Assembly (NCBI GenBank): GCA_035352955.1
Contig: DAOPYQ010000003.1
Coordinates: 12,901 to 76,900, forward strand
Direction: 5' to 3'
DNA length: 64,000 bases
Source of the DNA: Candidatus Omnitrophota bacterium
Lineage (GTDB): Bacteria > Omnitrophota > Omnitrophia > Omnitrophales > Aquincolibacteriaceae
Shown here: piece by piece, positions 24,823 through 49,040 of the stretch
Numbering within the stretch: the first letter of the stretch is position 1
Layout: each line of letters opens with the position of its first letter
Position numbers and translations under genes: made by a program
The notes under the pieces: generated by a model
The model's input: the letters and a program-made list of their open reading frames with translations, nothing else
Told to the model about the DNA's origin: nothing
Databases searched by the model: none

Positions 24823-24840
24823 TTTTTTATCGTTGAGGCC

Positions 24841-26229
24841 TTAAGTGTGGCGAAAGCCCCGAAAAGAAACGTCATGTTCCAGATAGAGTTGTCTCGCCTG
24901 CTCGATGTGAGATCGGAGTTTTTTCTCAAAGTAATTCGTCATCAGGCGGGAATTAGCTTCATAGAGCGCCGCATGGAATTCTTGATCCGTCATGTTCGTG
25001 AAATTGACCGCCAGTAAGTCCGAGTTGAGATGTTTATTCTCGTAAAAATCCTCAATGTCTTTCAAAAGGCCGCGCCGAATCGCTTCGTAATAGAGAGGCG
25101 AGCCGGGATAAGGTGTCACGGGCCGAATGGTACGCATTTGGGCGCCATCGTCATATTTAAGAAGAAACTCAACGCCCTTTTGCAATGTTTCCCGGCTTTC
25201 GCCGATATTGCCGAAAATGATATTAAAACCCGGGCTCATCCCTTCCGCTAAAGTCGCTTCGATCCCCTTGATAATCTGTTCCACGGTCAAGGCTTTGTGC
25301 ATGTTCTTCAGGATCTGATTATCCATCGCCTCGATCCCATAGTTAATAAAGACACAGCCGGCACGTTTCATGATCTTGAGAACATCGGGGGTGGCATAAT
25401 TGAGGCGGCCATTGCAATCCCAACGGATCTTAAGGTCATGTTTGATCATGCTTTCGCAAAGGGAAATGGTTCGCGCGACCGATGACATTAAGAGTTCATC
25501 CGAGAACGAAATAAAGGTAATACCGTAATCGCGTTGAAGCAGTTTAATCTCTTCGATAATGGACTCGGTGCTTCTCGGGCGAAAACCGTCATCCATGCGA
25601 TAACAAAAATTGCATTTAAAGGTACAGCCGCGGCCTGAAAGGACGGGCATGACAAAATCACGGTTTGTTGTGTGCGCCGCACGGACCAGCCGGTAATAAT
25701 GCATGGGAAAGAGGTGGTACGCAGGGAACGGAATGCTGTCGACGTCTTGGATCAGATCGCGCCTTTGATTCACGAAAACGTTCTCCCCTTCGCGATAGGC
25801 GATCCCGGCGATGTTCTTTAAAGGCTGCTTATTGACCAACGCCTGGAAAAGTTCGCGGACAGTTGCTTCCCCTTCGCCTAACACGGCGCAATCGGCCCCG
25901 GTTCTTTTTAAGAAGAATTCCGGGTCGGGAGAGGGACCATGCCCTCCGATCACATAGAACGGCCTGTCCTTTGCTGCCGCAATGGCTTTCGACAGGTTGA
26001 GCAATTTCCGATATTGATAATACCCCGCGATCACGCTGACCCCGACCACATCAAAATGCTTTTGATCGAGATATCGGGTGAGATGTTCGTCCGGATAATG
26101 GTGCATGTCCTGGTTGTAGATCTCCACTTCATGCCCGTCTTCAAGCATGATCGAGGCGATGTAGGCCAAACCTTGCGGGAACCAATGGATATAGGAATCA
26201 TTGTCATAAACCACTAAAAGAATTCGCAT
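24841..26229 (-). CDS. B12-binding (class B) radical SAM enzyme
   Basis: 'MRILLVVYDND...' B12-like domain and 'SGRGCTFKCNFCYR' cluster. Confidence 0.8.
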   Translation of the reverse strand: MRILLVVYDNDSYIHWFPQGLAYIASIMLEDGHEVEIYNQDMHHYPDEHLTRYLDQKHFDVVGVSVIAGYYQYRKLLNLSKAIAAAKDRPFYVIGGHGPSPDPEFFLKRTGADCAVLGEGEATVRELFQALVNKQPLKNIAGIAYREGENVFVNQRRDLIQDVDSIPFPAYHLFPMHYYRLVRAAHTTNRDFVMPVLSGRGCTFKCNFCYRMDDGFRPRSTESIIEEIKLLQRDYGITFISFSDELLMSSVARTISLCESMIKHDLKIRWDCNGRLNYATPDVLKIMKRAGCVFINYGIEAMDNQILKNMHKALTVEQIIKGIEATLAEGMSPGFNIIFGNIGESRETLQKGVEFLLKYDDGAQMRTIRPVTPYPGSPLYYEAIRRGLLKDIEDFYENKHLNSDLLAVNFTNMTDQEFHAALYEANSRLMTNYFEKKLRSHIEQARQLYLEHDVSFRGFRHT

Positions 26230-26269
26230 CGACTTTTCCTTTCAAATTAGCCTTCTAGGGCGCCTAAGA

Positions 26270-27268
26270 TTAGTAAATACCGCGCTGGCATACAGCGCAG
26301 GCTCCCAGTGTGTCTTCGAGAATGGCGTCACGGACTTTTTTCAATTGAGGAGAATGCCATGCTTCCTCAATGGTCATGGTTGCAATATTCCCAAGTTTTA
26401 AAACATCGCCGATAAACGCACAACACGGAAGAATGTCCCCATTAGCACGAACGGCCAAACGTCTCCAGGGTTCAATGCAGCAATAGAGACGCGGTTTTTT
26501 CAAGACTTCCGCGTTCATCGCGAGATCAGGTTTAACATATTTTTGGATATCAACATGGTCCACCCTGTCTTTCCAATAGGAGATGAAATCGTTCTTTTCA
26601 GATGCGTTTTCCTTCATCTCAATAAAGGATACGCGCACCCACGGCAAACGACCGGTGGCCCGGGGGCCGCGCATTTCCATGAATCGTAATAGATTTTTCT
26701 TTGCCATTTCATAGCCCTTTCCGCGAATAATACCGTAGGTTTCTGGCCGGAAAGCATCCAGGGATACATAGAGCCGCGTCAATCCGCATTCGAGAAGTTT
26801 CTGCGACATCTTTTCGTTAAGCAATAAGGCGTTCGTAATGAGGATCGAATCGATGATGCCGTGATCGCGGGCGTATTGGAGCATGGGAATAAGGTCCAGA
26901 TGGATCAAGGGTTCGGCATAGGCGCCGACATTGATGCTGACGGTTCCTTTTGGGGTGCATTCATCGATGACGCGGCAAAACTGCTCATAGCTTAATTTCT
27001 TCTTCGTATTGACGGTGACCGGAACAGGATAAAGATCGTAATGAGTTTTGTTCCGAGGACACATGATGCATTGCTGATTGCAAAGATCATTAAGTTCGAA
27101 ATCGATATGAATGGGAAAATCCAATGCTTGACCTTTCGTGACCGGAATATTCCACAATTCGCGATATTTCTTGAAAGGCTCGCCGAAATGGCGCGTGAGG
27201 TAATTTTCGACATTGTCATTCGTAAAGACATTCGTGACCAGGCTTTTGCTGCCCGTGTTTTTATTCAT
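26270..27268 (-). CDS. Radical SAM enzyme with SPASM/twitch-like C-terminal Cys cluster
   Basis: 'LNDLCNQQCIMCPR' (CxxxCxxC). C-terminus 'LPCCAFIGD...GACAVCQ'. Confidence 0.7.
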   Translation of the reverse strand: MNKNTGSKSLVTNVFTNDNVENYLTRHFGEPFKKYRELWNIPVTKGQALDFPIHIDFELNDLCNQQCIMCPRNKTHYDLYPVPVTVNTKKKLSYEQFCRVIDECTPKGTVSINVGAYAEPLIHLDLIPMLQYARDHGIIDSILITNALLLNEKMSQKLLECGLTRLYVSLDAFRPETYGIIRGKGYEMAKKNLLRFMEMRGPRATGRLPWVRVSFIEMKENASEKNDFISYWKDRVDHVDIQKYVKPDLAMNAEVLKKPRLYCCIEPWRRLAVRANGDILPCCAFIGDVLKLGNIATMTIEEAWHSPQLKKVRDAILEDTLGACAVCQRGIY

Positions 27269-28337
27269 GAGAGTTCTCTATCCTTAAGCCGCATTCGATC
27301 AAAGAAGGCCTGAGAGGGGTCCCGGCTTTTAGATCCAAGTGTGCCCTCTTGCCGAGGACTTTCCCCAAATATTTAGGTTTCAGACCGGAGGCCGGTCGGA
27401 TCGATGCGATGTTCTGTTCCGTGAATAACTCTCCTTTTTTTATATCGCGGACTACAAAGAGCGAGCGGCGGAAATGACAGAATCGTTTTTCATCTTGGGT
27501 GGGGCCATAGCGGACCGAGCCTAAAGCTTGTTCCGCTTGTCTGACCGCGACGACAAGATCTTTGAGCTCATGCGGCTCAAGCGAAAAAAAACTGTCCGGT
27601 GTTTTGATCTTTCGTGAAAGCGTAAAATGCTTTTCGATGAAGCAGGCGCCCAACGCCACGGATGCGACGGCGACAGCGATCCCAAGAGAATGATCCGAGA
27701 GACCGATCGGAAGTTTTGTTTTTTGTCTTAGGTCCGCAAGGGTCCGAAGGTTCATATCGCTGGCGTTCGCCGGATAACCGCTCACGCATTTAAGTAAGGT
27801 GATCGAACGCGCGCCGCCATGTTTTGCTGTTGCGACCGCTTCCTTGATCTCTTGGAAAGAGGCCATGCCTGTAGAAAGGATGAGGGGCTTTTTAGTTCTT
27901 GCGGCATAAGCGATCAACGGGAGGTCCACGAGTTCGAAGGATGCGATCTTGTGGCAAAAAACCCCGAGATCGTCGAGAAAATCCACCGAAGACCGGTCAA
28001 AGGCCGTGGAAAAAAAGGCCAGATCATGGTTTTCCGCTTCGCGTTTTAACTTTTTGAACCAGGACCACGGCGTGTAGGCCTGTTGATACAGCTCATAAAG
28101 CGTTTGCCCTCCCCACTTCGGATGCCGGATTCGAAAATACTTGTTGTCGGCCTTTAGGGTGAGCGTATCCGGAGTGTACGCCTGGAATTTAACAGCATCC
28201 ACCCCGCACTTTTTGGCAAGGTGTATCAGTTGAAGAGCGCGATTCAGGCTTTGACCGTGGTTCGCCGAGATCTCGGCAACAATAAAAACCTTTTGGGGAG
28301 GAAATGATCTCATAGCTGATCTTGGACGAAGTGCCAA
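27261..28337 (-). CDS. pseI: Nonulosonic acid synthase (NeuB family; pseudaminic acid synthase PseI-like) with C-terminal SAF domain
   Basis: 'IVAEISANHGQSL', 'KFQAYTPDTL', 'GLSDHSLG' and the C-terminal SAF region. Neighbouring pse genes support PseI rather than NeuB/LegI. Confidence 0.8.
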   Translation of the reverse strand: MALRPRSAMRSFPPQKVFIVAEISANHGQSLNRALQLIHLAKKCGVDAVKFQAYTPDTLTLKADNKYFRIRHPKWGGQTLYELYQQAYTPWSWFKKLKREAENHDLAFFSTAFDRSSVDFLDDLGVFCHKIASFELVDLPLIAYAARTKKPLILSTGMASFQEIKEAVATAKHGGARSITLLKCVSGYPANASDMNLRTLADLRQKTKLPIGLSDHSLGIAVAVASVALGACFIEKHFTLSRKIKTPDSFFSLEPHELKDLVVAVRQAEQALGSVRYGPTQDEKRFCHFRRSLFVVRDIKKGELFTEQNIASIRPASGLKPKYLGKVLGKRAHLDLKAGTPLRPSLIECGLRIENSHE

Positions 28338-29743
28338 GCCTCCTGACCGTGGATATTCTTGATATTGAGCGGGCGGAATCCGGCTTTCTGGAACGCTTTA
28401 ACGGAAGCATGATTCTCTTTTTTGATGAAAGCATCGACCATTTTGATCTCCGACCGGGTGCGGAGAACCTGATGAACGGCAGCGCGCAACACACGAGCAG
28501 CAAGCCCTTTCCCCCGATATTGAGGTGCAAGCACGACAGAAATGGTGGCGCGTTCCCCGCGGGCATCAAAGCGGATCTGCCCGATCGTACGATCGCGTAA
28601 CACAGCCTTTAGAAAGAGACAATCCGGATCACGGAGTTTTTCATTGAACCAACGGCAATGTTCCTTCCAGAGGATCTGAGCCGAGTGAAAAGAAACGGCG
28701 CGGACTTCCGGAGCGGAGGACCAATGATAGATAAGAGCTCGGTCAGCGGCCCGGACGGGTTGGAACCGGATGACTGCATCGCATAATGCCTTTGCAGAGC
28801 GCAGAGCGCCCCGGCCGTCGACCGCTTTCTGGCCGGCCCGGCTCATACGGCTCCTTGAGCGATGATCCAAACGGTGAAGCAGCAGAGCGATATTCCCGAT
28901 GATCTTCGGATCCTCGTGCGATCCGGCTTCCTTGAGCAAACCGGTTTTCCGCCAGCCCAGAAGATTCAGCCGCTGATTCGAGGCGAATCGAACGCCGATG
29001 ACCGGGAGACCGCAAGCCGCGAGTTCGTTCGTGGTTTGTCCCCCACCTGAAATAGCGGCATCGCAACGAAGCATCAGTGCCTTGATCTGACTTCCGGAAA
29101 GAGAACGGTAAAAATGAGCCCGAGGGAAAGCCCGCTTATTCGGAAAGGGATAAGCGGTAATGACGTGAAACCGGTATTGAGGGAAGGAAAGGCTCAGCCG
29201 GGTCAGAAGCTGTTGGATAAAACCGGTCCGCTCCATACCGCCGAATGTCAAAAGAAGGTCTCGAAATTTAGTCCGAACGGTTCGATGACCGACCTTCCAA
29301 AAATTCTTTCTTAAGAGAGCAAAGCGGGAACCGAGCAGCAAAGGAAGCGCTCGAAAACCATAACGGAGCTTTTCTGTTCCGATCGCGCCATTCAGGATAA
29401 TGCCTTCCGGATAAGCCAGGCGTTTGAAATCATCGAGGAATACAGGTACCGGGACCTGTTCTGACACATTCTTGTAAAAAGAACGGGGCGCAAGATAAGA
29501 GTCAACGATCACGATATCGGCCTTCTTCAATTCACTGCGGACTCGTCCCTGATCCTTGAGCCAATCAAAGACCGAGTTCAATTGCTTCCCGAATTGACGG
29601 CGCGCGGAGTTGTCGCCGTTAACGAATAAAAAAGCATCGATGCCTATTTCGGTGAGCGCATCACGCAAGGCAATACAGCGTGTGATATGGCCAAAGCCGA
29701 TGCGTTTGCCTCCTTCCGTGAAAATGACGGCGCGAAGCCTCAT
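28310..29743 (-). CDS. PseG (UDP-sugar hydrolase) fused to PseH-like GNAT N-acetyltransferase
   Basis: N-terminus 'FTEGGKRIGFGHITRCIALRDAL' matches the PseG signature. C-terminal ~160 aa is GNAT ('QYRGKGLAARVL...AFQKAGF'). Confidence 0.7.
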   Translation of the reverse strand: MRLRAVIFTEGGKRIGFGHITRCIALRDALTEIGIDAFLFVNGDNSARRQFGKQLNSVFDWLKDQGRVRSELKKADIVIVDSYLAPRSFYKNVSEQVPVPVFLDDFKRLAYPEGIILNGAIGTEKLRYGFRALPLLLGSRFALLRKNFWKVGHRTVRTKFRDLLLTFGGMERTGFIQQLLTRLSLSFPQYRFHVITAYPFPNKRAFPRAHFYRSLSGSQIKALMLRCDAAISGGGQTTNELAACGLPVIGVRFASNQRLNLLGWRKTGLLKEAGSHEDPKIIGNIALLLHRLDHRSRSRMSRAGQKAVDGRGALRSAKALCDAVIRFQPVRAADRALIYHWSSAPEVRAVSFHSAQILWKEHCRWFNEKLRDPDCLFLKAVLRDRTIGQIRFDARGERATISVVLAPQYRGKGLAARVLRAAVHQVLRTRSEIKMVDAFIKKENHASVKAFQKAGFRPLNIKNIHGQEAWHFVQDQL

Positions 29744-30531
29744 GCGCCCACCTTCCCCGGTTGATCTGTATGAGTTCCCCGGACATGAATGCCTTGCTTG
29801 CGTAAGTGCTCTTTGACTTCGAGCGGGGTTTTCTCGGTGAAATGAAAAATGCTGGCGGCGGCTATTGCCGCGGCTTTCCCTTGCAGGATGGCCGCGTAAA
29901 AATCATTCAAACAACCGGCGCCACCGGAGGCGATGACGGGAATGCTTACTTTTTGCGTTACGTGCCGGATCAGATCAAGGTCATAACCTTTCATGGTGCC
30001 GTCATGCTCGATGGATGTGATCAGAATCTCCCCAGCGCCACGTTTTTCGGCTTCGGCCGCCCATGCTCCGACTTCACGTCCCGTGGAGCGCGTACCACTG
30101 TGACTGTGACATTCATAAGAGCCGTCACTTTTACGGCGGGCATCAATGCTCACGATAATGCACTGGGAACCGAAGCGCTTTGCCGCCTGCGTGATAAATT
30201 CAGGATTCTCATAAGCGGCGCTATTGATCGTGATCTTATCGGCTCCGGACAAAAGAAGTTTCCGGATGACATCGAGATCCCCGACGCCTCCGCCCACCGT
30301 TAAGGGAACGAAACATTCAGCGGAAAATTCACTGACGGAACTGTAATCGGGTTCCCTTTTTTCAAGTGTGGCCGCGATATCGACGAGAATGAGTTCATCG
30401 ACGTCCCTGAGATTATAAACTTTGATCGCGGGAAGGACCGATCCGATGCGGCGCCAGCTGTCAAAGCCGATCCCTTTGACCAAGCATTCGTTTTTCCAGA
30501 GAAGCGTTGGAATCACACGGGTCTTCAGCAT
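29740..30531 (-). CDS. HisF-like cyclase subunit (WbuZ-type) of the sugar amidotransferase module
   Basis: 'RVIPTLLWKN...VKG', 'DELILVDI', 'VGGGVGD' are HisF (TIM barrel) motifs. Lies in the Pse cluster next to the HisH-like gene. Confidence 0.8.
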   Translation of the reverse strand: MLKTRVIPTLLWKNECLVKGIGFDSWRRIGSVLPAIKVYNLRDVDELILVDIAATLEKREPDYSSVSEFSAECFVPLTVGGGVGDLDVIRKLLLSGADKITINSAAYENPEFITQAAKRFGSQCIIVSIDARRKSDGSYECHSHSGTRSTGREVGAWAAEAEKRGAGEILITSIEHDGTMKGYDLDLIRHVTQKVSIPVIASGGAGCLNDFYAAILQGKAAAIAAASIFHFTEKTPLEVKEHLRKQGIHVRGTHTDQPGKVGA

Positions 30532-30532
30532 A

Positions 30533-31147
30533 TTAGAGGCTCAGAAAGTTGCGGATCAGGCGAAAGCCTGCCTTCGAGCTTTTTTCGGGATGAAATTGTG
30601 TGCCGAGGATATTTTTATGGGCGACTACGGACGTGAAGTGGCCGCAGTAGGGGGTTTGGGCCACCACATCCTCTTCGTTTAATGCCCGGAAGTGATAGCT
30701 GTGCACAAAATAGAAATCATCGCGGTCCTGGATGCCAGAGAGGATCGGATGCGGCCGAGTGATCGAGATCTCATTCCACCCAACGTGCGGCAGACGCTCC
30801 TCACCTGACGGAGGACTAAGTTTTTCAACCTTACCGGGGATGAGGCCGAGTCCCTCCATGTTACCGCCTTCTGTGCCATGGTCCGCAAGCAGCTGCATTC
30901 CGAGACAGATCCCTAAGAGAGGGATCTTCTCGACGAGAGCGGCCTGGCGGATCTCCTGGATCCAATCCATGGTGTTCAGATGCTGCATACCATCGTAGAA
31001 GGAGCCGACTCCTGGCAGCACAATTTTAGAGGCGCTGCGCAGTTCCGAGGGGGTCTGGCTGCAGGTCACTTGGGCGCCGCATTCCTCGAAGGAGCGACGG
31101 ACGGAGCCAAGATTTCCCATGTTGTAGTCAATGATCACGACATTCAT
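30533..31147 (-). CDS. HisH-like class I glutamine amidotransferase (WbuY-type)
   Basis: 'VVIIDYNMGNLGSV', 'LPGVGSF', 'GICLGMQLL' catalytic Cys region; 'HSY' near the C-terminus. Confidence 0.8.
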   Translation of the reverse strand: MNVVIIDYNMGNLGSVRRSFEECGAQVTCSQTPSELRSASKIVLPGVGSFYDGMQHLNTMDWIQEIRQAALVEKIPLLGICLGMQLLADHGTEGGNMEGLGLIPGKVEKLSPPSGEERLPHVGWNEISITRPHPILSGIQDRDDFYFVHSYHFRALNEEDVVAQTPYCGHFTSVVAHKNILGTQFHPEKSSKAGFRLIRNFLSL

Positions 31148-32300
31148 GGTCTAGGATTATCATCGTTGATCTTTTTGAGATTGCCGAGTCGGTCTTTGAG
31201 GAGGTTTCCGCGCGCATCGGCCAAAAAGATCTTTTTATTGGTGAACCGGTCGCAGATCTTGATGAAGTCTTCCACCGTGATGTTCAGGGGCTCGAGGATC
31301 TTTTCTAAAGGCTTTCCAAGATAGGTCCAGGGGAACTTTCCGTCATGCAATTTGATGAGTTCAAGTGCGTCCTGCCTTGTGATCCTTCCCCGCCGTACGT
31401 GAAGACATGCGATGTCCGTGGCGCGGCTGAAACCGAACTTCAGGAATTTGAAGTAATCATGGATCCCGGTCTGATGATTATCCACGTTCTCATAGTTGAC
31501 GATGGATCCTTCGACCGTGGCGGAGTGGGGTTCAAAGCCATGTGCTTGAGCCAGCAGCGCATTGGAATAACCGTCCCATCCCAGGTAGTATCCAGGAAGA
31601 TGCCGGTCACGCCGACCCGAGCAAGCTCTTCATCCGAAGGATACGTGTAAGGTATCAATTGTTCTTTCTTGATCCCGTCCTGCCCGATCATATCCGAAAC
31701 ACGAAGGCCAAGAAGCCCTCCGAATTCTTCAAGCCAGCGCCGATTCAGAACATTGTTGGAACTGGCGCTCGCAGGGCCGCCATATTCGTTCTGGGAATTC
31801 TCGCCCCAGATCAAAAGCGGAACGCCATATTGGACCGCGGCCCTTACCGGGATCGTAAAAATCCCGACATGCTCGGGCCACGAGACATCTCCCACTTGCA
31901 TGAGTCCGATCCGATTCAGTTTCCGTCGAACCACTTTGTTCGGCGAAAATTCAATATAGTCCACGCCAAGGCTCTTAATATTCTCAATGTTGCGTCTCCC
32001 GACCGGCGAAAGATCACAGGTGGTCGCCGTCACGCAAAGGGGGTTCATCCCAAGCTGAAGCATGCGGATCACCTGGTATGTGGAATCCTTGCCGCCGCTT
32101 ACCGGAACGATGCAGTCCCAGCGGGTGCCGTCCTTGGAGCGGTATTTATCGAGAACAACGCACAACTCCTTGCGACGGGCGTCCCAATCCACCACTTTGC
32201 GGGTCTCATAACTGCGGCATGCATTACAAATGCCTTCCTCATCGATGTGAAGATCGGGTTTGGTATGAGGCATGACGCATCGTGTGCAATATTTCAGCAT
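31144..32300 (-). CDS. N-acetyl sugar amidotransferase (WbuX/PseA-like PP-loop ATPase), split by an apparent frameshift near 31575-31630
   Basis: N-terminus 'MLKYCTRCVMP...CNAC' zinc ribbon and 'VPVSGGKDS' PP-loop. Start ~32300 has a good RBS. The C-terminal 'HQTGIHDYFKFLKFG...FPWTYLGKPLE' continues in another frame (ORFs 31440-32522 and 31144-31485). Confidence 0.7.
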
Positions 32301-32311
32301 AAAAATCCCTC

Positions 32312-32962
32312 CTAGGAATGTGCCGGCTTTTCCAGAAGAAACCAGGTGATATCGTCTTGAGGAAAGTGAAGGTCGCGATGATAACCGAAGCCGTAGTTTA
32401 AAAGCCGTAGGCCGGGATACCGGTCCAGCATTTCTCCGGCAAAGTCCCGTTTGAACAGCCGGTCTGTATGGCCGCGGTACGGGATAGTTGTCGGGCTTGG
32501 ATTGTAGTATTCGGCGATGCAAATATACCGGGCGCTCGAACGATAAAGCGTTTCATAGACCTTGGCGAGGTAATCAGGATTGATGTGGATCAGCACTCCC
32601 TTGATCAACACCATGTCCCATGTCCTCCTGGTTTTGAAATCAAGGATCGAAACCGGAAAAAGCTCGACGTCCTTCATGTTCTTTTTAAGCGCGGTATTGG
32701 CTTTTTGATTGATCTCAACGGAAGCAAGCGACGCTTCCGGTAAAAGCACTCGAAGCGCCTGGAGGTTCAATCCGATGTTGGCGCCAAATTCAATGACCGA
32801 ACCGATCTTTCCGGTGCCAGCAAGGACCTTTGCGAAAAGAGCGGTATTCGCCGCGATCCAGTTATTCCCCCGGTTGCGCGCAACGTACTCTTCTCCGAAT
32901 TTTCCGGCCCAGAACTTTTCCTGATCCGTTTTGTAATTGCGTGAATTACTCCTTGCCATCAA
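32312..32962 (-). CDS. Pseudaminic acid biosynthesis-associated methyltransferase-like protein
   Basis: 216 aa; 'SVIEFGANIGLNLQAL' motif I. Size and neighbourhood match the Pse-associated methylase family. Confidence 0.65.
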   Translation of the reverse strand: MMARSNSRNYKTDQEKFWAGKFGEEYVARNRGNNWIAANTALFAKVLAGTGKIGSVIEFGANIGLNLQALRVLLPEASLASVEINQKANTALKKNMKDVELFPVSILDFKTRRTWDMVLIKGVLIHINPDYLAKVYETLYRSSARYICIAEYYNPSPTTIPYRGHTDRLFKRDFAGEMLDRYPGLRLLNYGFGYHRDLHFPQDDITWFLLEKPAHS

Positions 32963-32979
32963 AATCCTCCTCGGGATCT

Positions 32980-34020
32980 TTAACGGGATTTCGCTCTTCT
33001 TGGTTTGGAAATTCCAAGGTCGTAGCCAAGACGGGTCAGTATTTTTCTCATTTGATCCACCGAAAGATGGCGCGGATTGTTGAGCGAGTCATATTCGAAA
33101 TCATCGCGCACCTGTTTTCCGCCCTTCATCTTGGAGGAGCGGAGTCCCCAGAACTCAAATTCGGGTTCAACGATGAAGAAATCATTGAATTCCAAGGAGT
33201 GACGGGCGTCGCTCACAGGCAAAAGAACTTCATGCAGCTTTTCGCCAGGGCGAATGCCCACGATCTTGGTTTTAATGCCGGGGGCAATGGCTTCAGCGAG
33301 CGCCATGATATTCATGCTCGGGATTTTAGGGATGAAGATCTCTCCCCCTGCCATGCGTTCAAGACATTTCAAAACGAAATGGGCGCCTTCTTCAAGGGTG
33401 ATCCAAAAACGTGTCATGCGAGGATCAGTGATGGGAAGGACCCCTTCATGCCGTTTTTCCATAAAAAAAGGAACCACGCTGCCGCGGCTGCCTAGGACGT
33501 TGCCATAGCGAACCACGCTGAATACGTCCTGATTGCCTCCGGCATAAGAGTTGCCATCGACAAAAAGTTTGTCCGAGCAAAGTTTCGTCGCTCCGTAAAG
33601 ATTGATGGGGTTCGCGGCTTTGTCAGTGCTGAGCGCAATCACCTTCTTGACCTTTTGGTCAATGGCGCAATCAATGATGTTCTGAGCGCCGATGATATTG
33701 GTTTTGACCGCCTCAAAGGGATTGTATTCAGCGGCGGGCACTTGTTTCATTGCGGCGGCATGAATGACGTAGTCCACGTTATGAAAGGCGCGCAACAGTC
33801 TTTCTTTATCGCGAACGTCGCCCAGGAAATAGCGGATCGCCGGGTATTTTTGAGGTGAAAAGGTCTGCGCCATTTCGAATTGCTTGAATTCGTCACGGCT
33901 AAAAATAATGATCCGCCGGGCGGCACATTGATCCAAAAGGATATTAGTCAGCATTTTTCCTAACGAACCGGTCCCTCCGGTGATTAAGATCGTTTTATTG
34001 TTTAAAAAATCGTAGCTCAC
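32980..34020 (-). CDS. pseB: UDP-N-acetylglucosamine 4,6-dehydratase (inverting), PseB
   Basis: 'KTILITGGTGSLGK', 'YGATKL', 'RYGNVLGSRGSVVPFF' are canonical PseB/FlaA1 motifs. Confidence 0.85.
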   Translation of the reverse strand: MSYDFLNNKTILITGGTGSLGKMLTNILLDQCAARRIIIFSRDEFKQFEMAQTFSPQKYPAIRYFLGDVRDKERLLRAFHNVDYVIHAAAMKQVPAAEYNPFEAVKTNIIGAQNIIDCAIDQKVKKVIALSTDKAANPINLYGATKLCSDKLFVDGNSYAGGNQDVFSVVRYGNVLGSRGSVVPFFMEKRHEGVLPITDPRMTRFWITLEEGAHFVLKCLERMAGGEIFIPKIPSMNIMALAEAIAPGIKTKIVGIRPGEKLHEVLLPVSDARHSLEFNDFFIVEPEFEFWGLRSSKMKGGKQVRDDFEYDSLNNPRHLSVDQMRKILTRLGYDLGISKPRRAKSR

Positions 34021-34061
34021 TTTGACCTCCTGGTTAATATGCGAACGGACTGCTTTTTCAG

Positions 34062-36131
34062 CTAAGATTGAGACGGTACGGCTCTGACAGTTCTAAAAAG
34101 ACTATGGACGTTCCCTACTCGCGTTATGATCTTGCTCAAAGCGCTGACGGAAGTCCCATAGCGCTTAAAAAGATCCTGGCGTGTTTTCATTTGCTCATCG
34201 GTATACTCAAAAACATAATGGATCTTCGCAGCGCCTGAGAAATGCGACAGCGGGGTTTGTTCCTCCGCTTTATGCCATTTTAAAAGGTCATAGGGGCTTA
34301 ACATGCTGATGGGTGAAGTGTCTGCTTCGCTGTCGATGCAGCCGGCGAGCCTGTTCTTTTCAAATGAAACGAGCGTATCGATCTCTTGGTGAAGTTGTTC
34401 GATCATTTTCTTGTGCGGCGGACGTTCGGAAACGATCTTTTTGATCGTGTTGCCGATATGTTCTGCCCAAAGGCCTGCGGCTAAAGCTAAGCCTAAGCTT
34501 TTGTATTTATAGATGAGGTTCCCTCCGAGCTCGCCGCGGAGAAGCTTTTCATAGTTCTCGTCCCGCATAAAAAATTCGATAAGGTCTTCCTCGGAATCCC
34601 AAAGCTCGTCCCGTGTTTCCTTCAAAAAGTCATTAACGATATCGCGGATCTTTTGGGGCGCTTCCGGAATGGCGGCGTAAAGACCTAGGATCATGTCGTC
34701 GGTCTTGATCCCAAGATCCCTGGCATAATGAAAAAGCATCTGGAACGGACTGTCGCTGTAAAGAGTTTCAACGAAAAGGCATAAACCGCGAAGCCATAAA
34801 TAATCTTCAAAGGGCATATCCTTCGTGGCGATGCCGACCTCTTCATAATCAAAGATCCGCTTGCCATCGTATTCTCCAAAGTTAAGCGGTACGATACGGA
34901 ACTTGCCTTGGATCCCGAATTTCTTCCGATATTCCGGGTCTTGAAACTCGGTCCCCTGAAGAAGCATGAGCGAATAAATGCACATGCTGGTGATCCCGGC
35001 ATCCATCAATTGACGTACCCCCCGCACGAAGGTTTCTTTGCTTTCACCGGGAAGCCCGATGATCATTTCGCCGCGAGTGATCCTTCCTTTTTTTTGAAGA
35101 TGCTTCGTAATGGCGGAAAAGTGTTCGATCTTGATATTGTCACGGTGAATGTTCTTTAGAACTTTCGGTTCCATGGATTGCACCGCCATGGTCACAGGGA
35201 AGGATTCCCCCATGAGATCGGTGATCTGGATCACTCTCTCCTTGTTATTCTTACCGGTCGAGGCAAGAATCTGCCGGGGCCATCCGTATTTTCTTTGGGT
35301 GCGATAGAGCGCTTCGGCGATCTCTTTGTCGCGAGGATACATGCCGAAATTCGTGTCCGCGATGTGCAGATTGACGATCCCGAGTTGACCCGCGCGCGGC
35401 GCGATGTAATCGATCTCGTTGACGATGCGCTCCACGGAAAACATGGCGATCGGATTGAAGTATTTATGACTTGTGTGGCAATAGGAACATGTGAACGGAC
35501 AACCGCGATTCGTTTCAATGAAAGGCGTCAGAACACCATCAAAAAAAGGATCCAGGAGGCCGGTCAGATAAGGAGATGGGATCTCATCGAGATTTTTTAG
35601 ACGCGGCGTGACACCGCCTGTGATGAGTTGCGGATGCTTGGACGTGCGTGAACCGGGTGCAAGATAAACACATCCGGCAAGGGGCTGTTTCAAAATGCCT
35701 TTTTCCGGATCCCGTTGCAAAAGTAATTGGCGGATCACATTGCAGAATGAGACCTCGCCTTCAAATTCGAGAAAGATATCCGTGTTCGGCCGCTGAAGTA
35801 CGAACGGAAGTTGGAGCGCATGATCATGCGGAAAGTTGGCCCCGCCTTGAAGGGTCACCATATTAGGGTTCAACCGTTTTCCAATGCCGGCAACGTGTTC
35901 TGAGAGATGACTATTCCAGCAATAATTGCTCAGCGCAAGAACATCGGGCGGTGAATCTTTGAGCGCTTGGATCGCTTTTAAGGGAAGTTTGAAAAGGGAT
36001 ATCTCAACGCTTTCGCCAAGTTGTTTTTTTAAATACGAGGCAATAAACGCGATATTCAGCGGGATCGTATCATTGACCACCATCTTCACATAATGCGTCA
36101 GGTCGCAGAGATAAATTCTGAGAGGTTTCAT
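34062..36131 (-). CDS. B12-binding (class B) radical SAM enzyme (689 aa) embedded in the pse operon
   Basis: N-terminal B12-like domain, 'TNRGCPFTCSYCHTS' cluster, and a ~250-aa C-terminal extension. Confidence 0.8.
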   Translation of the reverse strand: MKPLRIYLCDLTHYVKMVVNDTIPLNIAFIASYLKKQLGESVEISLFKLPLKAIQALKDSPPDVLALSNYCWNSHLSEHVAGIGKRLNPNMVTLQGGANFPHDHALQLPFVLQRPNTDIFLEFEGEVSFCNVIRQLLLQRDPEKGILKQPLAGCVYLAPGSRTSKHPQLITGGVTPRLKNLDEIPSPYLTGLLDPFFDGVLTPFIETNRGCPFTCSYCHTSHKYFNPIAMFSVERIVNEIDYIAPRAGQLGIVNLHIADTNFGMYPRDKEIAEALYRTQRKYGWPRQILASTGKNNKERVIQITDLMGESFPVTMAVQSMEPKVLKNIHRDNIKIEHFSAITKHLQKKGRITRGEMIIGLPGESKETFVRGVRQLMDAGITSMCIYSLMLLQGTEFQDPEYRKKFGIQGKFRIVPLNFGEYDGKRIFDYEEVGIATKDMPFEDYLWLRGLCLFVETLYSDSPFQMLFHYARDLGIKTDDMILGLYAAIPEAPQKIRDIVNDFLKETRDELWDSEEDLIEFFMRDENYEKLLRGELGGNLIYKYKSLGLALAAGLWAEHIGNTIKKIVSERPPHKKMIEQLHQEIDTLVSFEKNRLAGCIDSEADTSPISMLSPYDLLKWHKAEEQTPLSHFSGAAKIHYVFEYTDEQMKTRQDLFKRYGTSVSALSKIITRVGNVHSLFRTVRAVPSQS

Positions 36132-36868
36132 GCGTCCGCCTTAAAAGTTTTCTGTTGAACATGGGAATTGACGATTAATTCAGGCCGACGTCTGACAAGG
36201 GCCATGACCGAATCGATGCCAAAAAAATGGTCTTGAGCATAAAGCGCTTCGAATATTTCCTGAATGAACCTGAAATCCTCGGGAGTGTCCACGGTCACGC
36301 GCAGCGTCGGTTGCATCTGGTCAGATTTAGCGCGAACCTGGCCAAGTTTAAACCATGAAGGATGCTCCCAAATGTAAGGCGTTACATGTTCACGCTCGTA
36401 AGGGACGCGGGCCTCGGAAGCTGCCTTTTTGAGGCTCGCGAAAGTCATAACCTCCGTATCATACCCCCTTGGATAAGAGCGCTCCAGAGTATTGCTTGTG
36501 TAATCAAAACCGCCGTCTACATGCGTCTTGATGATCCGTTCAATGATGTTTGGATCAAGCATCGGACAGTCACCCGTGCAGCGGACCACATGTTGGGGCT
36601 TGTAACGATCGGCCGCTTGACAGTAGCGGTCCAAGACGTCATTTTCGCTTCCGGCGAACCCCTCGACTCCTTCGGCGCGGGCTAGCTCGAGGATCGGCTG
36701 ATTTTCTTTTCTATCGCCAGTCGCAATCACAATACGATCAAGCGAACGACATCGTTTTAGCCGAACGATGGAATGCAACAGCATGGGTTTCCCACACAAC
36801 GGCAAAAGCACTTTCCCCGGTAGCCTTTCAGAGCCCATCCTGGCTTGAATAATCGCAATCGTGCTCAT
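36128..36868 (-). CDS. pseF: CMP-pseudaminic acid synthetase-like cytidylyltransferase (PseF/SpsF family)
   Basis: 'IAIIQARMGSERLPGKVL' signature. Confidence 0.8.
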   Translation of the reverse strand: MSTIAIIQARMGSERLPGKVLLPLCGKPMLLHSIVRLKRCRSLDRIVIATGDRKENQPILELARAEGVEGFAGSENDVLDRYCQAADRYKPQHVVRCTGDCPMLDPNIIERIIKTHVDGGFDYTSNTLERSYPRGYDTEVMTFASLKKAASEARVPYEREHVTPYIWEHPSWFKLGQVRAKSDQMQPTLRVTVDTPEDFRFIQEIFEALYAQDHFFGIDSVMALVRRRPELIVNSHVQQKTFKADA

Positions 36869-38076
36869 GACCGGCGGCTCCGTGTTTTAGGTGATAATTT
36901 GTTCGCCGGTGATGACGCATAAGACAAGATGACCTCTTTGACGGTTCGAGATGTGAACTTGATCTCCTCATCCGTCAATTTTGGGAACATGGGCAGAGAA
37001 ATTGCGGAATCGTAGTAAGCGACGGCGTTAGGACAATCTTTTGAATTATAGCCAAGCGCTCGATAATAAGGTTGTGATGGGATCGGGATATAGTGGACCT
37101 GGACACCCAATCCCCTGCGTTGAAGCTCAATGAATATGTCTTTGCGCTTTGAAGCGAGTTCTTTATGAAGGCGCATGACAAAAAGATGATACACATGCTT
37201 GTAAGAAGGCTTTTCGACGGGTGTCGACACGGAAAGATCTTTGAAGGCCGCGCAATAGTTTCGCGCGATCTGACGACGACGTGCGACAAACTGGCTGAGT
37301 TTTTTTAGTTGTGCGCTGCCCATAGCCGCTTGAAGGTCGGTCAATCGATAATTAAAGCCCAAATGTTGCATTTCGTAATACCAGGGTCCGACATTCTTGT
37401 CTAAAAGTTTTTGAGGATCTCGAGTAACCCCATGAGTTCTGAGTTCCGATAGGCGCTCATAGAAAGCGCGATCGTTGGTTGTGATGGCTCCGCCTTCGCC
37501 CGTAGTAATGTGCTTGACTGGATGAAAACTGAAGATCGCCATATCGGAATGACGGCAAGCACCGACCTTGCATGATCCATAACTTGCCCCGAGCGCGTGA
37601 GCTGCGTCCTCAAGAACCTTAAGCCCATGTTTTTTCGCAATGCAGTGAATTATTTCTAGATCCGCCGCATGGCCGCCAAAGTCCGTGACGAAGATCGCTT
37701 TCGTTCTCGAAGAAATTTTTTTTTCAATGAGGTGCGTATCTATGCACTGCGTTTCGGGATCAATATCAACAAAGACCGGCTTTGCGCCCACGTAGAGAGC
37801 AGCGTTTGAAGTGGCAAGAAAGCTGATCGGAGTGGTAATAACTTCGTCGCCCGGTTTGAGCTCGAGTGCGAGGGCCGCAAGATGAAGAGCGGCAGTTCCA
37901 TTGGCCACAGCAACCGCATATTTAGCGCCCACGGTTTTTGCCAAAAGACATTCAAATTCACGCACTTTTGGCCCTTGTGTAAGGAAGTCGGATCTCAGGA
38001 CCTTACAAACGGCGTCAATTTCTTCTTTGCCTAGGCATTGCTTCCCATACGGAATGATTGTTGATCGTTTAGTCAC
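36865..38076 (-). CDS. pseC: DegT/DnrJ/EryC1-family PLP aminotransferase (PseC-like)
   Basis: 'IPYGKQCLGKEEIDAV', 'VANGTAALHLA', 'FSFHPVKHITTGEGG' (Lys-PLP region). Confidence 0.85.
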   Translation of the reverse strand: MTKRSTIIPYGKQCLGKEEIDAVCKVLRSDFLTQGPKVREFECLLAKTVGAKYAVAVANGTAALHLAALALELKPGDEVITTPISFLATSNAALYVGAKPVFVDIDPETQCIDTHLIEKKISSRTKAIFVTDFGGHAADLEIIHCIAKKHGLKVLEDAAHALGASYGSCKVGACRHSDMAIFSFHPVKHITTGEGGAITTNDRAFYERLSELRTHGVTRDPQKLLDKNVGPWYYEMQHLGFNYRLTDLQAAMGSAQLKKLSQFVARRRQIARNYCAAFKDLSVSTPVEKPSYKHVYHLFVMRLHKELASKRKDIFIELQRRGLGVQVHYIPIPSQPYYRALGYNSKDCPNAVAYYDSAISLPMFPKLTDEEIKFTSRTVKEVILSYASSPANKLSPKTRSRRS

Positions 38077-38112
38077 TACAACACCTGTTCGCCATGAGAA
38101 TTAAGCATAAGA

Positions 38113-38361
38113 TTAAAACTGGGGCAGTTCTTCATCATGAGCCCAGCGTCGAGCTCGGTTATAAGCTTTTCCGACACCATCTTCTAGTTTCGGAGAGAGA
38201 ATCCGCAAAAGCTCCTTTCCCATGATGCGGTATTGTTTACCGACTTTGGCTGCCCGAATGAGCCCACTTTTAATCATCCGGGTCATGGTGCTAGAACTGA
38301 TCTTTAGCAGCACCTGAGATTCTTTAGGCGTATATACCGAATTTTCGTGAATAGGATCCAT
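38113..38361 (-). CDS. Small helix-turn-helix DNA-binding protein (excisionase/MerR-like family)
   Basis: 82 aa. 'LLKISSSTMTRMIKSGLIRAAKVGKQYRI' resembles the excisionase-family HTH. First gene after a 160-bp AT-rich region and 36 bp upstream of pseC. Confidence 0.5.
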   Translation of the reverse strand: MDPIHENSVYTPKESQVLLKISSSTMTRMIKSGLIRAAKVGKQYRIMGKELLRILSPKLEDGVGKAYNRARRWAHDEELPQF

Positions 38362-38520
38362 TGAATAGCTCCTTGGACTTTTCGAAAAGATATATACGTA
38401 TAGCCCCTTTTAGCACTCACGTCAATAATAATCACGTCCAGTCATTACTAGTCATTAAATGTGCCTTAATATGACTATAAATGAATAAAATCATTATTTA
38501 TATGAGCGTCTTCGAAATAT
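38362..38520 (-). promoter_or_regulatory. AT-rich intergenic region with direct repeats and an imperfect palindrome; probable promoter/operator of the pse operon
   Basis: ~30% GC versus ~50% around it. 'agtcattactagtcattaaatg' direct repeat; 'ataaatgaataaaatcattatttat' imperfect palindrome; several TATA-like hexamers. Confidence 0.4.
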
Positions 38521-40389
38521 TTAGCGTGGAGTTTTGGGCGGGATCGGCACCATTTCGCCGATTTTCCAAAGCTCATAGACATAGCGTTCATTCCGACAAA
38601 CGAACTCGACGGTGGTTTCCAATGTTTTCTTATAATTTACGAACAGTTTTTCAGGGGTTAATAAAGTCTCAAAATGCCCATTCACGGAATAGTCCTTCAT
38701 ATACAGCATGTATTTTCCAAAACCTAACAACCTTAGATGTTCTTCCAAAGATTCTCCTTGGGGCCAGCACCCTTTCTCAAAAGGGTCTAGCTTGATCAAA
38801 TTAAGCATGGCAATGTCGCGGCGAAAATAGAACAGGCGCGGCTCATTAAGGTTGAGAACCTTCGCATCCTGCGGCAAATGGCTGTTCACATATTCTGCAA
38901 CATCATAACTGCGCTCATGTCCTCGAAGAAAATCCTCGCGTTTTTCCAGGCCAAAGGCCACACGGATTTTATCGACGTTGTGATAAACCGACAATGCAGC
39001 GCTGTAACAAAAAATCCCGATCAACAAGGCCGTTGCGACTTTTCGGACCCATGGATCCATTGAAAGTTCTTGATAAATAAAAGCGACAAGGATCGATAAA
39101 AAAATAAGCGTCGGGAAAAAAAAGCGCGTGTACTGGTAAACGATGAACCACGACGAATACAAACCCAGAGCGATCGCTAGAACATAAAGCATGAACTTTG
39201 GAAAAGATCGAACGAAAACCACCATGGGCAAAAAGATGAGAAAAACAACACCGAGACTCTCTCCCCCAAAGATGTCAGGCGACATCGTAAGAGGCCAAAG
39301 CATGAAAAAATAAGGAATGATTCCGAGGCCAAATCCTGCGGTGGTTTGATACCCGAGCACGCTCTCCGGATAGCCGTGTCCTCCGAAGAGCTTGGCCGCG
39401 AACGGATAGATAGGATTTCCTAGGATGATCCAGGACCGAATATACCAAATACAGCAGGCAAGGAACATCCCCCCGAGAAACAAGCCGGCGCCAAGAAATT
39501 TTTCTTTTTTAAACGGCATAGCCCGCATAGAAACAAAATAGAGAACAAGGATCAAGGCGGGAACGATTGCCGACGGAAGCTTAATACCCAACAAAAAACC
39601 TGACATGATGCCGGAAAGAGCGAACCAGGACATTTGCGAGGTATCCCGCCATACGAAAAAGCAATAAAAAGAGATAATCGTGTAAAAAGTCACGGCAAGA
39701 TCGGTGTAAGCGTAGGTTGTTACTGTAAAAATCGCGGGGGTCAGGGAAAAAATAGCCGCGGCCAACAAACAGGAACGCCGTGGTAAATAGCGGCGGCAAA
39801 GCGCATAAATCGCCAGAAAGGTCGTAACGTAGAAAGAAAAGTGAAAGAGCTTTGCAAGGATCACGCCTTTCAAACAAAGCGCAAAGGTGAAGAGGGTCTG
39901 GACAAAGAAAGGCCAAAGCGAATCTCTCGTGTAAGGAATGCGAAAGATCGCATGCGCCTGGACAAACAGTTTCGGATCCTGCATGTGATAAGCAGCGGAA
40001 TCCATGCCAAGCAACGGCGATAAAGAGCCGATCAAAGTGAAAAATGCCACAAAGCCGATCGCCGCGATCAAAAATCGTTCAAAAAATGAAACCTTGGCTT
40101 TCAAGAGGCCGAGTGAGAAAGTTTCAAGATCCTTCACGGTTTGGATCACGCTTTTGCGGAATAAAACGGCAAGAATAAGGACAACAGGCATCAGGGCCTC
40201 TCGATACAGAAGTCCCCCGAGGCCGATCAGAAGAACAGTCAGAACGAGCATTCCAATGCCCATGCCGTAGCCGATTAGGGATTTCTCCAAAACGGAGAGA
40301 GAGGATGTTTCAACTATGAGGCTAACGCATTTCCTTCCCGTTCCAGTGAGGACCACGGCGATGACAAGAAAGATAAGAAGATCGATCAT
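38521..40389 (-). CDS. GT-C fold membrane glycosyltransferase (family 39-like)
   Basis: 622 aa polytopic. 'DSAAYHMQDPKLF' loop resembles the D-E/S-x-x-Y motif. C-terminal soluble domain. Confidence 0.5.
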   Translation of the reverse strand: MIDLLIFLVIAVVLTGTGRKCVSLIVETSSLSVLEKSLIGYGMGIGMLVLTVLLIGLGGLLYREALMPVVLILAVLFRKSVIQTVKDLETFSLGLLKAKVSFFERFLIAAIGFVAFFTLIGSLSPLLGMDSAAYHMQDPKLFVQAHAIFRIPYTRDSLWPFFVQTLFTFALCLKGVILAKLFHFSFYVTTFLAIYALCRRYLPRRSCLLAAAIFSLTPAIFTVTTYAYTDLAVTFYTIISFYCFFVWRDTSQMSWFALSGIMSGFLLGIKLPSAIVPALILVLYFVSMRAMPFKKEKFLGAGLFLGGMFLACCIWYIRSWIILGNPIYPFAAKLFGGHGYPESVLGYQTTAGFGLGIIPYFFMLWPLTMSPDIFGGESLGVVFLIFLPMVVFVRSFPKFMLYVLAIALGLYSSWFIVYQYTRFFFPTLIFLSILVAFIYQELSMDPWVRKVATALLIGIFCYSAALSVYHNVDKIRVAFGLEKREDFLRGHERSYDVAEYVNSHLPQDAKVLNLNEPRLFYFRRDIAMLNLIKLDPFEKGCWPQGESLEEHLRLLGFGKYMLYMKDYSVNGHFETLLTPEKLFVNYKKTLETTVEFVCRNERYVYELWKIGEMVPIPPKTPR

Positions 40390-40527
40390 AAATTACGCCC
40401 TAGCGAAGCCAACTCCGAAAGAGGTGAAATTTCGGCAAAACAAAACGTTCGATAAAAACGATCAATGCAATGGATGACCATCCCATGAATGCGACCCGTT
40501 TCATCCATAAGAACAACGTTTGTCGAT

Positions 40528-46150: not shown

Positions 46151-46219
46151 CCCTTCCCCTCGCAGACCGACCTTTCACCCCCGAAAAGCCGGGGTTTCCC
46201 GGAGTTACTCTGAGGGATC
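46151..46219. terminator. Hairpin between convergent GT2 genes; putative bidirectional terminator
   Basis: 'cccccgaaaagccgggg' stem-loop at ~46177-46194, flanked by T/A runs. Confidence 0.3.
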
Positions 46220-47032: not shown

Positions 47033-47065
47033 AACCCTGCCCCGCGCAAACCGGCCGAGCGCGCC

Positions 47066-49002: not shown

Positions 49003-49040
49003 AAAGAACTTCTCAGTACGCTAACACAACGTCACAGCAC

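Follow-up and report, generated by a model that had tools for sequence, protein, structure and literature searches.

Radical SAM enzymes in a pseudaminic acid-type operon of a Candidatus Omnitrophota bacterium and their possible role in tailoring nonulosonic acids

Introduction

Why should an operon for the synthesis of a nine-carbon surface sugar carry radical S-adenosylmethionine (SAM) enzymes? This question is raised by positions 26270-38076 of a 64,000-nucleotide stretch of DNA (here called the window; contig DAOPYQ010000003.1) from a Candidatus Omnitrophota bacterium. Within a large operon for a surface glycan, the region makes up the nucleotide-sugar part and encodes enzymes of pseudaminic acid (Pse) synthesis, an amidotransferase trio, and two radical SAM proteins of 689 and 332 amino acids. 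In this paper we analyzed the two proteins, their structural models and their genomic neighbourhood. We consider it somewhat probable that both of them tailor the nonulosonic acid. Our best guess, which is drawn from sequence comparison and modelled structure, is that the 689-amino acid enzyme adds a methyl group to a carbon of the sugar or of its nucleotide-linked precursor.

Nonulosonic acids cap flagella, capsules, lipopolysaccharides and S-layers, and they shape phage and immune recognition. In the Pse pathway, PseB, PseC, PseH, PseG, PseI and a cytidylyltransferase take UDP-N-acetylglucosamine (UDP-GlcNAc) to pseudaminic acid activated with cytidine monophosphate (CMP), and WbuX together with HisH and HisF converts an acetamido into an acetamidino group. 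To our knowledge, the tailoring of nonulosonic acids that has been described involves acyl, amidino, O-acetyl and N- or O-methyl groups, all introduced by conventional enzymes, and amidotransferase trio, methylase and radical SAM genes lie outside the six-enzyme core pathway of Campylobacter jejuni and Helicobacter pylori. Our literature search found no paper that links a radical SAM enzyme, cobalamin-dependent or SPASM, to nonulosonic, pseudaminic or legionaminic (Leg) acid, and neither of the two families is covered by a curated model. Both the Pse core and the trio of amidotransferase genes are already known, whereas the conserved placement of radical SAM genes in nonulosonic-acid operons is, as far as we found, undescribed.

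A predicted cobalamin-dependent methylase

The Pfam B12-binding model is weak on the 689-amino acid protein (26.3 bits against 32.1), yet this domain nevertheless aligns in the fold search. The top NCBIfam match is the KedN5 subfamily (NF033712), with 198.8 bits against a cut-off of 700 and only over residues 21-408, and the PhpK/Fom3-type models score 45-53 bits. A profile built from 24 homologues and compared with solved structures matched TokK (7kdx, E=7e-64) and CysS (9n1b, E=2e-52), which are iterative sp3-carbon methylases. The AlphaFold2 model has a mean predicted local distance difference test score (pLDDT) of 88.6. Over about 720 columns, Foldseek aligned it with TokK at a template modelling (TM) score of 0.74-0.79 and with CysS at 0.69-0.77, while OxsB, TsrM and MgmA stayed below 0.5 on the query. 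A large C-terminal domain has been reported as distinct to TokK, and the full-length fold alignment therefore indicates that this domain is common to TokK and the 689-amino acid protein.

The likeness also extends to single residues. The three cluster cysteines of the CX3CX2C motif (C211, C215 and C218 in ETNRGCPFTCSYC) are invariant across the 24 homologues, and so is W72, which aligns with TokK Trp76. In TokK this residue sits under the corrin, and it has been reported as common to TokK, ThnK and CysS only. With TokK and ThnK, which carry out carbapenem C6 alkylation, and with CysS, which extends the cystobactamid alkoxy group, the protein thus has in common the three-domain architecture including the large C-terminal domain, the motif ETNRGCP-x-C-x2-C and the Trp residue beneath the corrin. 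It differs from TokK and CysS in sequence (~20% identity) and in the setting of its gene, which is nucleotide-sugar biosynthesis without nearby pantetheine-carrier genes, whereas TokK and CysS are found in antibiotic clusters. From sequence and model together we infer that the protein is a methylcobalamin-dependent radical SAM methylase acting on an unactivated sp3 carbon of a substrate other than those of TokK and CysS. The possibility of C-methylation had already been raised in a first-pass annotation of this DNA, and the predicted full-length structural likeness to TokK and CysS strengthens it.

In such a reaction one SAM would supply the methyl group of methylcobalamin and a second SAM would give the 5'-deoxyadenosyl radical. 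The radical would take a hydrogen from an unactivated sp3 carbon, which would then be methylated, possibly repeatedly; the substrate would be the nonulosonic acid or a nucleotide-linked precursor of it. Fom3, GenK and GenD1 are B12 radical SAM methylases that act on a CMP-linked substrate or on aminoglycoside sugars. They set a precedent for C-methylation both at sugar carbons and in a cytidylylated substrate, and in the window the gene overlaps that of the cytidylyltransferase, but they are not the closest relatives of the 689-amino acid protein by sequence or by structure.

One possible option is that this protein is a cobalamin radical SAM enzyme that does not methylate, and that it performs a rearrangement or ring chemistry as OxsB does. 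The chemistry of cobalamin radical SAM enzymes is varied and the KedN5 cut-off is clearly missed, which would both fit such an option. Yet the TM scores to the methylases TokK and CysS (0.69-0.79) lie far above those to OxsB and TsrM, and the Trp residue which is common only to TokK, ThnK and CysS is invariant, so that we regard a non-methylating enzyme as improbable.

The genomic neighbourhood of the predicted methylase family

Another question is how far the arrangement in the window extends to other genomes. The family is large, with more than 3000 proteins at E<=1e-10 and a typical length of ~707 amino acids. A scan with one genome per species gave 581 confirmed relatives, and 79 loci, each with no more than 10 kb of flank, were examined by tblastn with the window proteins for a NeuB-family gene within 10 kb. 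Such a gene was found beside 10 of the 14 homologues with at least 45% identity, beside 7/17 in the range of 35-44%, and beside only 5/37 below 35%. When the neighbouring open reading frames (ORFs) were clustered, the commonest companions were a LegB-like dehydratase, a PtmE-like nucleotidyltransferase, NeuB, CTP_transf_3, DegT, NeuC/LegG and a PglD-like acetyltransferase. Other conserved neighbours are parts of ABC exporters, a pyruvyl transferase, a carbamoyltransferase and oxidoreductases. All 23 neighbouring synthases that were tested are of the NeuB/LegI type and none is PseI (0/23); a NeuB gene is clustered at 21 loci, of which 18 have markers of the diamino pathway and 15 have markers specific to Leg.

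In Acidobacteriota, Deltaproteobacteria, SAR324, Alphaproteobacteria, Omnitrophota, Planctomycetia and Pelagibacterales the homologous gene has core nonulosonic-acid genes on both sides. In several Acidobacteriota it is flanked by NeuB and NeuC, and in a Deltaproteobacteria metagenome-assembled genome (MAG) its neighbours are LegG on one side and a PIG-L/HisH/HisF/WbuX group on the other. An orthologue with 64% identity to the 689-amino acid protein is present in a second cluster of the Pse type (L171). The link is real and subfamily-specific, and it is with 5,7-diamino nonulosonic-acid operons generally, mostly legionaminic-type, and not specific to Pse. Due to this association with both kinds of operon, the target is probably common to Leg and Pse or to their precursors. 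Since orthologues occur in Leg-type and Pse-type operons alike, it would probably be a shared feature of the 5,7-diacylamido-3,5,7,9-tetradeoxy sugars, such as the C9 methyl or an N-acyl methyl group.

An N-acyl target could also be reached in another way. The enzyme might methylate an acyl group while this is bound to a carrier or to coenzyme A (CoA), and the group would be moved to N5 or N7 later, so that what is new would be the N-acyl side chain and not the sugar skeleton. The solved relatives TokK and CysS bind pantetheinylated substrates via their N- and C-terminal domains, and acyltransferases of the GNAT or PglD type are always nearby, both of which fit such a route. However, the conserved neighbours of the family include neither an acyl carrier protein nor a CoA ligase or a related gene, and within 26270-38076 there is no space for an unlisted carrier gene. 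Methylation of a carrier-bound acyl group is, for these reasons, a doubtful explanation to which we give little weight, and modification of the sugar or its nucleotide-linked precursor remains our preferred one.

Sugars that a C-methylase of this kind would produce may already have been seen. Pse/Leg-type ulosonic acids with an extra backbone carbon were described by mass spectrometry in Magnetospirillum gryphiswaldense and, weakly, in Methanococcus, based on a C10 marker fragment at m/z 311.10 in place of 297.09 and on CMP-linked species, and no enzyme was proposed for them (PMC8157484; bioRxiv 10.64898/2026.04.20.719630). The predicted TokK-like C-methylase of nonulosonic-acid operons is an evident candidate for making these C10 acids. 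A search with the Magnetovibrio orthologue found no Magnetospirillum homologue among the best 120 of 1876 matches. A MAG of the related Magnetovibrio (L010) does carry the TokK-like gene, in two copies, within a Leg-type cluster. That the enzyme extends the Pse/Leg-type carbon skeleton, for example by methylating the C9 methyl of the CMP- or NDP-linked sugar once or repeatedly to give ten-carbon or larger ulosonic acids, is a tentative idea that we think could well be wrong.

Two copies of the TokK-like gene per cluster are seen in L010 (129-1982 and 9983-12124), in L016 and in L026. This suggests that separate enzymes methylate one after the other, or that their targets differ. TokK-like homologues with 47-53% identity, often beside NeuB/NeuC genes, come from single-cell and metagenome genomes labelled as Pelagibacteraceae, Pelagibacter, uncultured Alphaproteobacteria and Prochlorococcus (L011-L013, L015-L018, L021 and L042). 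SAR11 is not known to make cobalamin, so that the supply of the cofactor deserves attention.

The twitch radical SAM protein and the acetamidino module

The 332-amino acid protein had been described in the first-pass annotation as a SPASM radical SAM enzyme abutting pseI. The gene is indeed there, and the correction concerns its auxiliary clusters. Besides C63/C67/C70 of the radical SAM core, the protein has C264, C282/C283 and C324-x2-C327, that is, only five conserved C-terminal cysteines in place of the seven-cysteine SPASM motif with its two auxiliary clusters. Because this C-terminal set fits the BtrN pattern with one auxiliary cluster, the domain is a twitch and not a full SPASM domain, and BtrN is also the best C-terminal sequence match. 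The AlphaFold2 model (pLDDT 89.4) finds generic SPASM/twitch relatives, which are SuiB, DesII, SkfB, BtrN, MoaA and viperin, with TM scores of ~0.5-0.68; this is insufficient to name the reaction. The top NCBIfam match scores 81 bits against a cut-off of 380, and the protein belongs to no curated family.

BtrN and DesII are twitch or SPASM enzymes that act on amino sugars and aminocyclitols. The radical SAM core and the four-cysteine, single-auxiliary-cluster pattern are alike, and DesII is among the best fold matches. The identity is 16-18%, and the conserved partner here is an amidotransferase module. By this comparison the twitch protein would carry out BtrN/DesII-like chemistry on an amino sugar alongside the amidotransferase module, which may be an oxidation, an epimerisation or a deamination.

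The partnership itself can be followed in other genomes. The family is small (64 proteins at E<=1e-10), and in three of three annotated loci the gene stands beside HisH, HisF, WbuX-like, NeuB-family and CTP_transf_3 genes. In a metagenome scan of loci with at least 3 kb of flank, nonulosonic-acid genes were found beside 20 of 24 homologues with at least 38% identity, against 4 of 24 in the range of 28-37%. A Maridesulfovibrio genome (GCA_048612815.1, L089) has the gene within a Pse-type cluster, the gene order HisF-HisH-WbuX-twitch radical SAM recurs in many loci, and the TokK-like and twitch families co-occur in L094, L102, L108, L120, L144, L145, L151 and L172. The co-conservation of radical SAM and pse genes that the first-pass annotation had named as a check thus holds for both families with nonulosonic-acid genes in a broader sense, mostly of the legionaminic type, and not for Pse alone.

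We can say that the acetamidino module has, in the twitch radical SAM protein, a fourth partner that is conserved. In WbuX/WbuY/WbuZ of Escherichia coli O145, WbpG/HisH2/HisF2 of Pseudomonas aeruginosa and AglXYZ of Methanococcus the three protein families likewise stand side by side; the window and many related loci differ by adding the twitch protein. We know of no fourth member of this kind in the characterised acetamidino-forming systems, and the protein would be a previously unrecognised one.

A related fusion is seen in a nonulosonic-acid locus (L090, 2344-4068), where a 574-amino acid protein joins CTP_transf_3 to a spiro-SPASM-like radical SAM/SPASM part; the same locus has a twitch radical SAM, a carbamoyltransferase and an MbnB/TglH-family gene. 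We considered this fusion as a Rosetta-stone argument and found it weak, as its radical SAM part is 20% identical to the twitch protein of the window. The uncharacterised TIGR04321 spiro-SPASM family, itself a fusion of a cytidylyltransferase-like part and a radical SAM/SPASM part, weakly matches the cytidylyltransferase and the twitch protein of the window. Unlike in the fusion, the two are encoded here on separate genes ~9 kb apart. Deacetylase genes (PIG-L or polysaccharide deacetylase) also recur near the radical SAM genes (L086, 12154-12837; L088, 13287-14231; L089, 10404-11273), and L088 has both a formyltransferase and a deacetylase. In a preprint on Ca. Kuenenia, free-amine and formylated CMP-nonulosonic acids were described together with a deacetylase/formyltransferase pair.

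The pseudaminic acid pathway and the surrounding genes

All genes that the first-pass annotation had named are found on the minus strand at the positions of Table 1. PseB, PseC and PseI score above the NCBIfam equivalog cut-offs, and the Pse-associated methyltransferase is confirmed with a score well over its own. The assignment of the pathway to Pse, and not to Leg or Neu, also holds. The PseC protein reaches 243 bits on the LegC model (cut-off 420), the PseI protein 317.2 bits on the NeuB model TIGR03569 (cut-off 399.65), and since the synthase passes the PseI model and misses the NeuB cut-off it is of the Pse type and not of the Neu/Leg type. Its start is likely at 28313, which gives 350 amino acids and matches the gene calls in the sibling contigs L001 and L002. 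Compared with the pathway of C. jejuni and H. pylori (PseB/C/H/G/I/F), PseB, PseC and PseI are present together with PseG-like, GNAT and cytidylyltransferase functions, here in one operon. Differences are that the PseG and PseH parts are fused in one protein and score below their cut-offs, that the cytidylyltransferase is KdsB-like and not of the TIGR03584 type, and that amidotransferase, methylase and radical SAM genes are interleaved with the pathway genes. The same PseG-GNAT architecture is found in the Pse-type clusters L089 and L171, and the cytidylyltransferase is 37% identical to its counterpart in the Maridesulfovibrio Pse cluster (L089).

Based on these assignments, PseB, PseC, the GNAT and PseG domains, PseI and the cytidylyltransferase would take UDP-GlcNAc to CMP-activated pseudaminic acid. 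In strains with an intact wbuX, WbuX with HisH and HisF would convert one acetamido into an acetamidino group, by analogy with E. coli O145 WbuXYZ and P. aeruginosa WbpG.

The genes are transcribed from 38076 to 26270 in the order of Table 1, from PseC to the 332-amino acid radical SAM protein. Overlaps of 4-8 nucleotides (nt) join pseC, the cytidylyltransferase gene and the 689-amino acid radical SAM gene, as well as pseI and the twitch radical SAM gene, which suggests translational coupling.

Table 1. Genes of the nucleotide-sugar region in the order of transcription, followed by the genes downstream of it (positions in the window; scores in bits)
Feature	Position	Strand	Evidence and remarks
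PseC, UDP-4-amino-4,6-dideoxy-N-acetyl-beta-L-altrosamine transaminase	36865-38076	-	TIGR03588 507.8 (cut-off 423.5); Pfam DegT_DnrJ_EryC1 396
CMP-sugar cytidylyltransferase, PseF role	36128-36868	-	Pfam CTP_transf_3 123.4; 4-nt overlap with each neighbour
689-amino acid cobalamin-dependent radical SAM protein of the TokK/ThnK/CysS structural class, predicted sp3-carbon methyltransferase	34062-36131	-	Pfam Radical_SAM
PseB, inverting UDP-GlcNAc 4,6-dehydratase	32980-34020	-	TIGR03589 504.7 (cut-off 407.75)
Pse-associated class I methyltransferase	32312-32962	-	TIGR03587 296.2 (cut-off 112)
WbuX-type N-acetyl sugar amidotransferase	31144-32300	-	Interrupted; ORFs 31440-32300 and 31144-31485
HisH-type glutaminase subunit (WbuY role)	30533-31147	-	TIGR01855 230.9; Pfam GATase
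HisF-type subunit (WbuZ / AglZ-HisF2 role)	29740-30531	-	TIGR03572 WbuZ 286.7 (cut-off 299.7); NF038364 AglZ_HisF2 262.4
Fusion of PseG-like hydrolase and GNAT acetyltransferase (PseH role)	28310-29743	-	TIGR03590, TIGR03585, Pfam GNAT families
PseI, pseudaminic acid synthase	27261-28337	-	TIGR03586 454.6 (cut-off 340.25)
332-amino acid radical SAM protein with BtrN-like twitch (truncated SPASM) domain	26270-27268	-	Pfam Radical_SAM 56.4, SPASM 48.1 (against 21.5); 8-nt overlap with pseI
462-amino acid B12-binding radical SAM protein	24841-26229	-	Pfam B12-binding 68.7, Radical_SAM 78.5
633-amino acid protein, candidate transferase for the modified sugar	22921-24822	-	TIGR04331 (LIC12162 family) 21.8, weak; no Pfam match
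Wzx-type flippase	21437-22924	-	Pfam Polysacc_synt; 69% identical at the same position of L172
518-amino acid B12-binding radical SAM protein, last of the conserved block	19888-21444	-	Pfam B12-binding and Radical_SAM; 75% identical at the same position of L172
483-amino acid B12-binding radical SAM protein	15553-17004	-	Further downstream in the same gene string

Where two radical SAM enzymes had been counted at first, the cluster has five. The three further ones are all of the B12-binding type; their genes are interleaved with class I methyltransferases and GT2 glycosyltransferases, and none of the three proteins reaches an NCBIfam cut-off. The class I methylase and these three proteins would probably methylate the sugar or the rest of the glycan. 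Part of this block is conserved in L172, where the order is TokK-like, twitch (60%), B12 radical SAM directly 3' of the twitch gene (76%), the 633-amino acid homologue (48%, 4354-6261), Wzx and B12 radical SAM; from the twitch gene onward this is the gene order of the window at 19888-27268. A Pfam LIC12162 protein is also found in the nonulosonic-acid locus L088 (14228-15880), and the 633-amino acid protein could be a transferase for the modified sugar.

The glycan-synthesis genes, all on the minus strand, form a single string from ~1360 to 49002 (~48 kb), which includes many glycosyltransferases, class I methyltransferases and GT-C membrane proteins. The locus was assembled from at least six metagenomes, with L001-L006 as the sibling contigs. 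The 689-amino acid protein is 100% identical to one that NCBI lists for a Candidatus Omnitrophota MAG. The G+C content is 0.45-0.53 in the glycan cluster (~0.47) and 0.55-0.58 to the right of 46 kb (46000-64000). The right flank encodes subunits of 2-oxoacid:ferredoxin oxidoreductase (49084-51699), sugar-nucleotide enzymes, UDP-glucose dehydrogenase and LptD (59318-61900), from which it follows that the organism is a diderm with lipopolysaccharide transport. A scan of the whole window with Rfam gave no matches to RNA families, and promoter-like and terminator-like sites in 24000-40600 are not more frequent than in shuffled sequence.

The glycan region also has five PMT_2-type GT-C proteins and one DUF2079 membrane protein (3911-7322, 38521-40389, 43681-45309, 51779-53566 and 2276-3901), and an 800-amino acid protein with no family match (40528-42930); this set of polyprenol-dependent transferases is unusually large. 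The window and each of the six sibling contigs have, immediately 5' of pseC, an ORF of 82 amino acids with an excisionase-like HTH_17 domain (38113-38361 in the window). In another locus (L087, 6973-8388) a lone TokK-like homologue stands amid an integrase, an HTH_17 gene and transposases. Together, the ORF upstream of pseC and this setting hint at horizontal movement of the radical SAM modules.

Weighing of the evidence

Several observations weigh against tailoring of a pseudaminic-type acid by the two radical SAM proteins. Part of the pathway is assigned below the thresholds of the models. In the fusion, which had been named PseG-PseH and in which the two parts are recognisable, the PseG part (residues 6-259) scores 121.8 bits on nearly the full TIGR03590 profile, below the cut-off of 153.55, and the PseH part (residues 326-460) scores 31.9 bits on TIGR03585, below 93.1, with clear GNAT Pfam domains. 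The protein that had been called PseF is a clear CTP_transf_3 cytidylyltransferase that fails the PseF equivalog TIGR03584 (34.9 against 205.7 bits), and we infer its PseF role from context. The nearest solved relatives of the 689-amino acid protein, TokK and CysS, act on pantetheine-linked substrates and not on sugars. Two residues that contact the substrate in TokK, Trp215 and Arg280, are replaced by I205 and L289, as expected if the substrate differs, and the target atom is therefore unreadable from the sequence. The cluster is rich in other sugar-modifying genes, so that some of the radical SAM proteins may have their targets elsewhere in the glycan. In both families, many of the more distant members stand without nonulosonic-acid genes nearby, and thus family membership alone does not fix the substrate. 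Finally, the amidotransferase trio is present with all three families adjacent, as had been noted, with wbuX split by a single-base deletion: one C is missing between 31594 and 31593 of the window when it is aligned with the sibling contigs L002 and L005.

The last two points on substrate lead to another explanation, in which the substrates of the radical SAM proteins are different sugars of the polysaccharide, or else an acceptor that is a lipid or a protein, and their genes stand near the Pse genes only through the clustering of glycan genes. The ~48-kb glycan string with its many glycosyltransferases, methyltransferases and GT-C proteins, the distant homologues outside nonulosonic-acid loci, and the frequency of B12 radical SAM genes in such clusters would all agree with this. 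It is less easily reconciled with the position of the 689-amino acid gene between core nonulosonic-acid genes in several phyla, or with the twitch gene adjoining WbuX in many loci. Moreover, the association drops steeply as the sequences diverge, and this speaks for a link that is specific to the subfamily. We therefore think that action on other sugars or acceptors is unlikely, while it deserves more weight than the remaining alternatives.

The wbuX frameshift raises the question of whether the operon works at all in this strain. The TIGR03573 profile is covered by both pieces, with positions 2-235 in the N-terminal ORF (236.5 bits against 203.2) and 271-343 in the second one. The split is a difference from the WbuXYZ, WbpG and AglXYZ systems. 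The genes of the HisH-like and HisF-like subunits are adjacent to it and overlapping. The deletion site, within 31560-31630, lies outside a homopolymer run (TTCCTCGG against TTCCTGG). An assembly error, a pseudogene or a (phase-like) polymorphism within the population could each account for it, and from the sequence as assembled the acetamidino group may possibly not be made. One could go further and see in the frameshift the mark of a decaying, non-functional operon, given that two other assemblies (L001 and L004) are also split at wbuX. Against such decay, every other gene is intact, four sibling contigs whose sequence is otherwise near-identical (L002, L003, L005 and L006) have wbuX intact, with 376-385 amino acids, and the deletion may be an assembly error or a phase-like polymorphism. 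Decay of the module is, in our view, very improbable.

Each of the alternatives discussed here is less well supported than tailoring of the nonulosonic acid by the two radical SAM proteins.

Conclusions

Two radical SAM families are embedded in the nonulosonic-acid operons of several phyla, among them lineages that are abundant in the sea and in soil, and this implies a sugar chemistry that has not been described. It suggests that there are versions of these surface sugars which are unstudied and probably C-methylated. If our reading is true, methylation by cobalamin radical SAM enzymes reaches beyond antibiotic pathways to the primary synthesis of cell-surface glycans.

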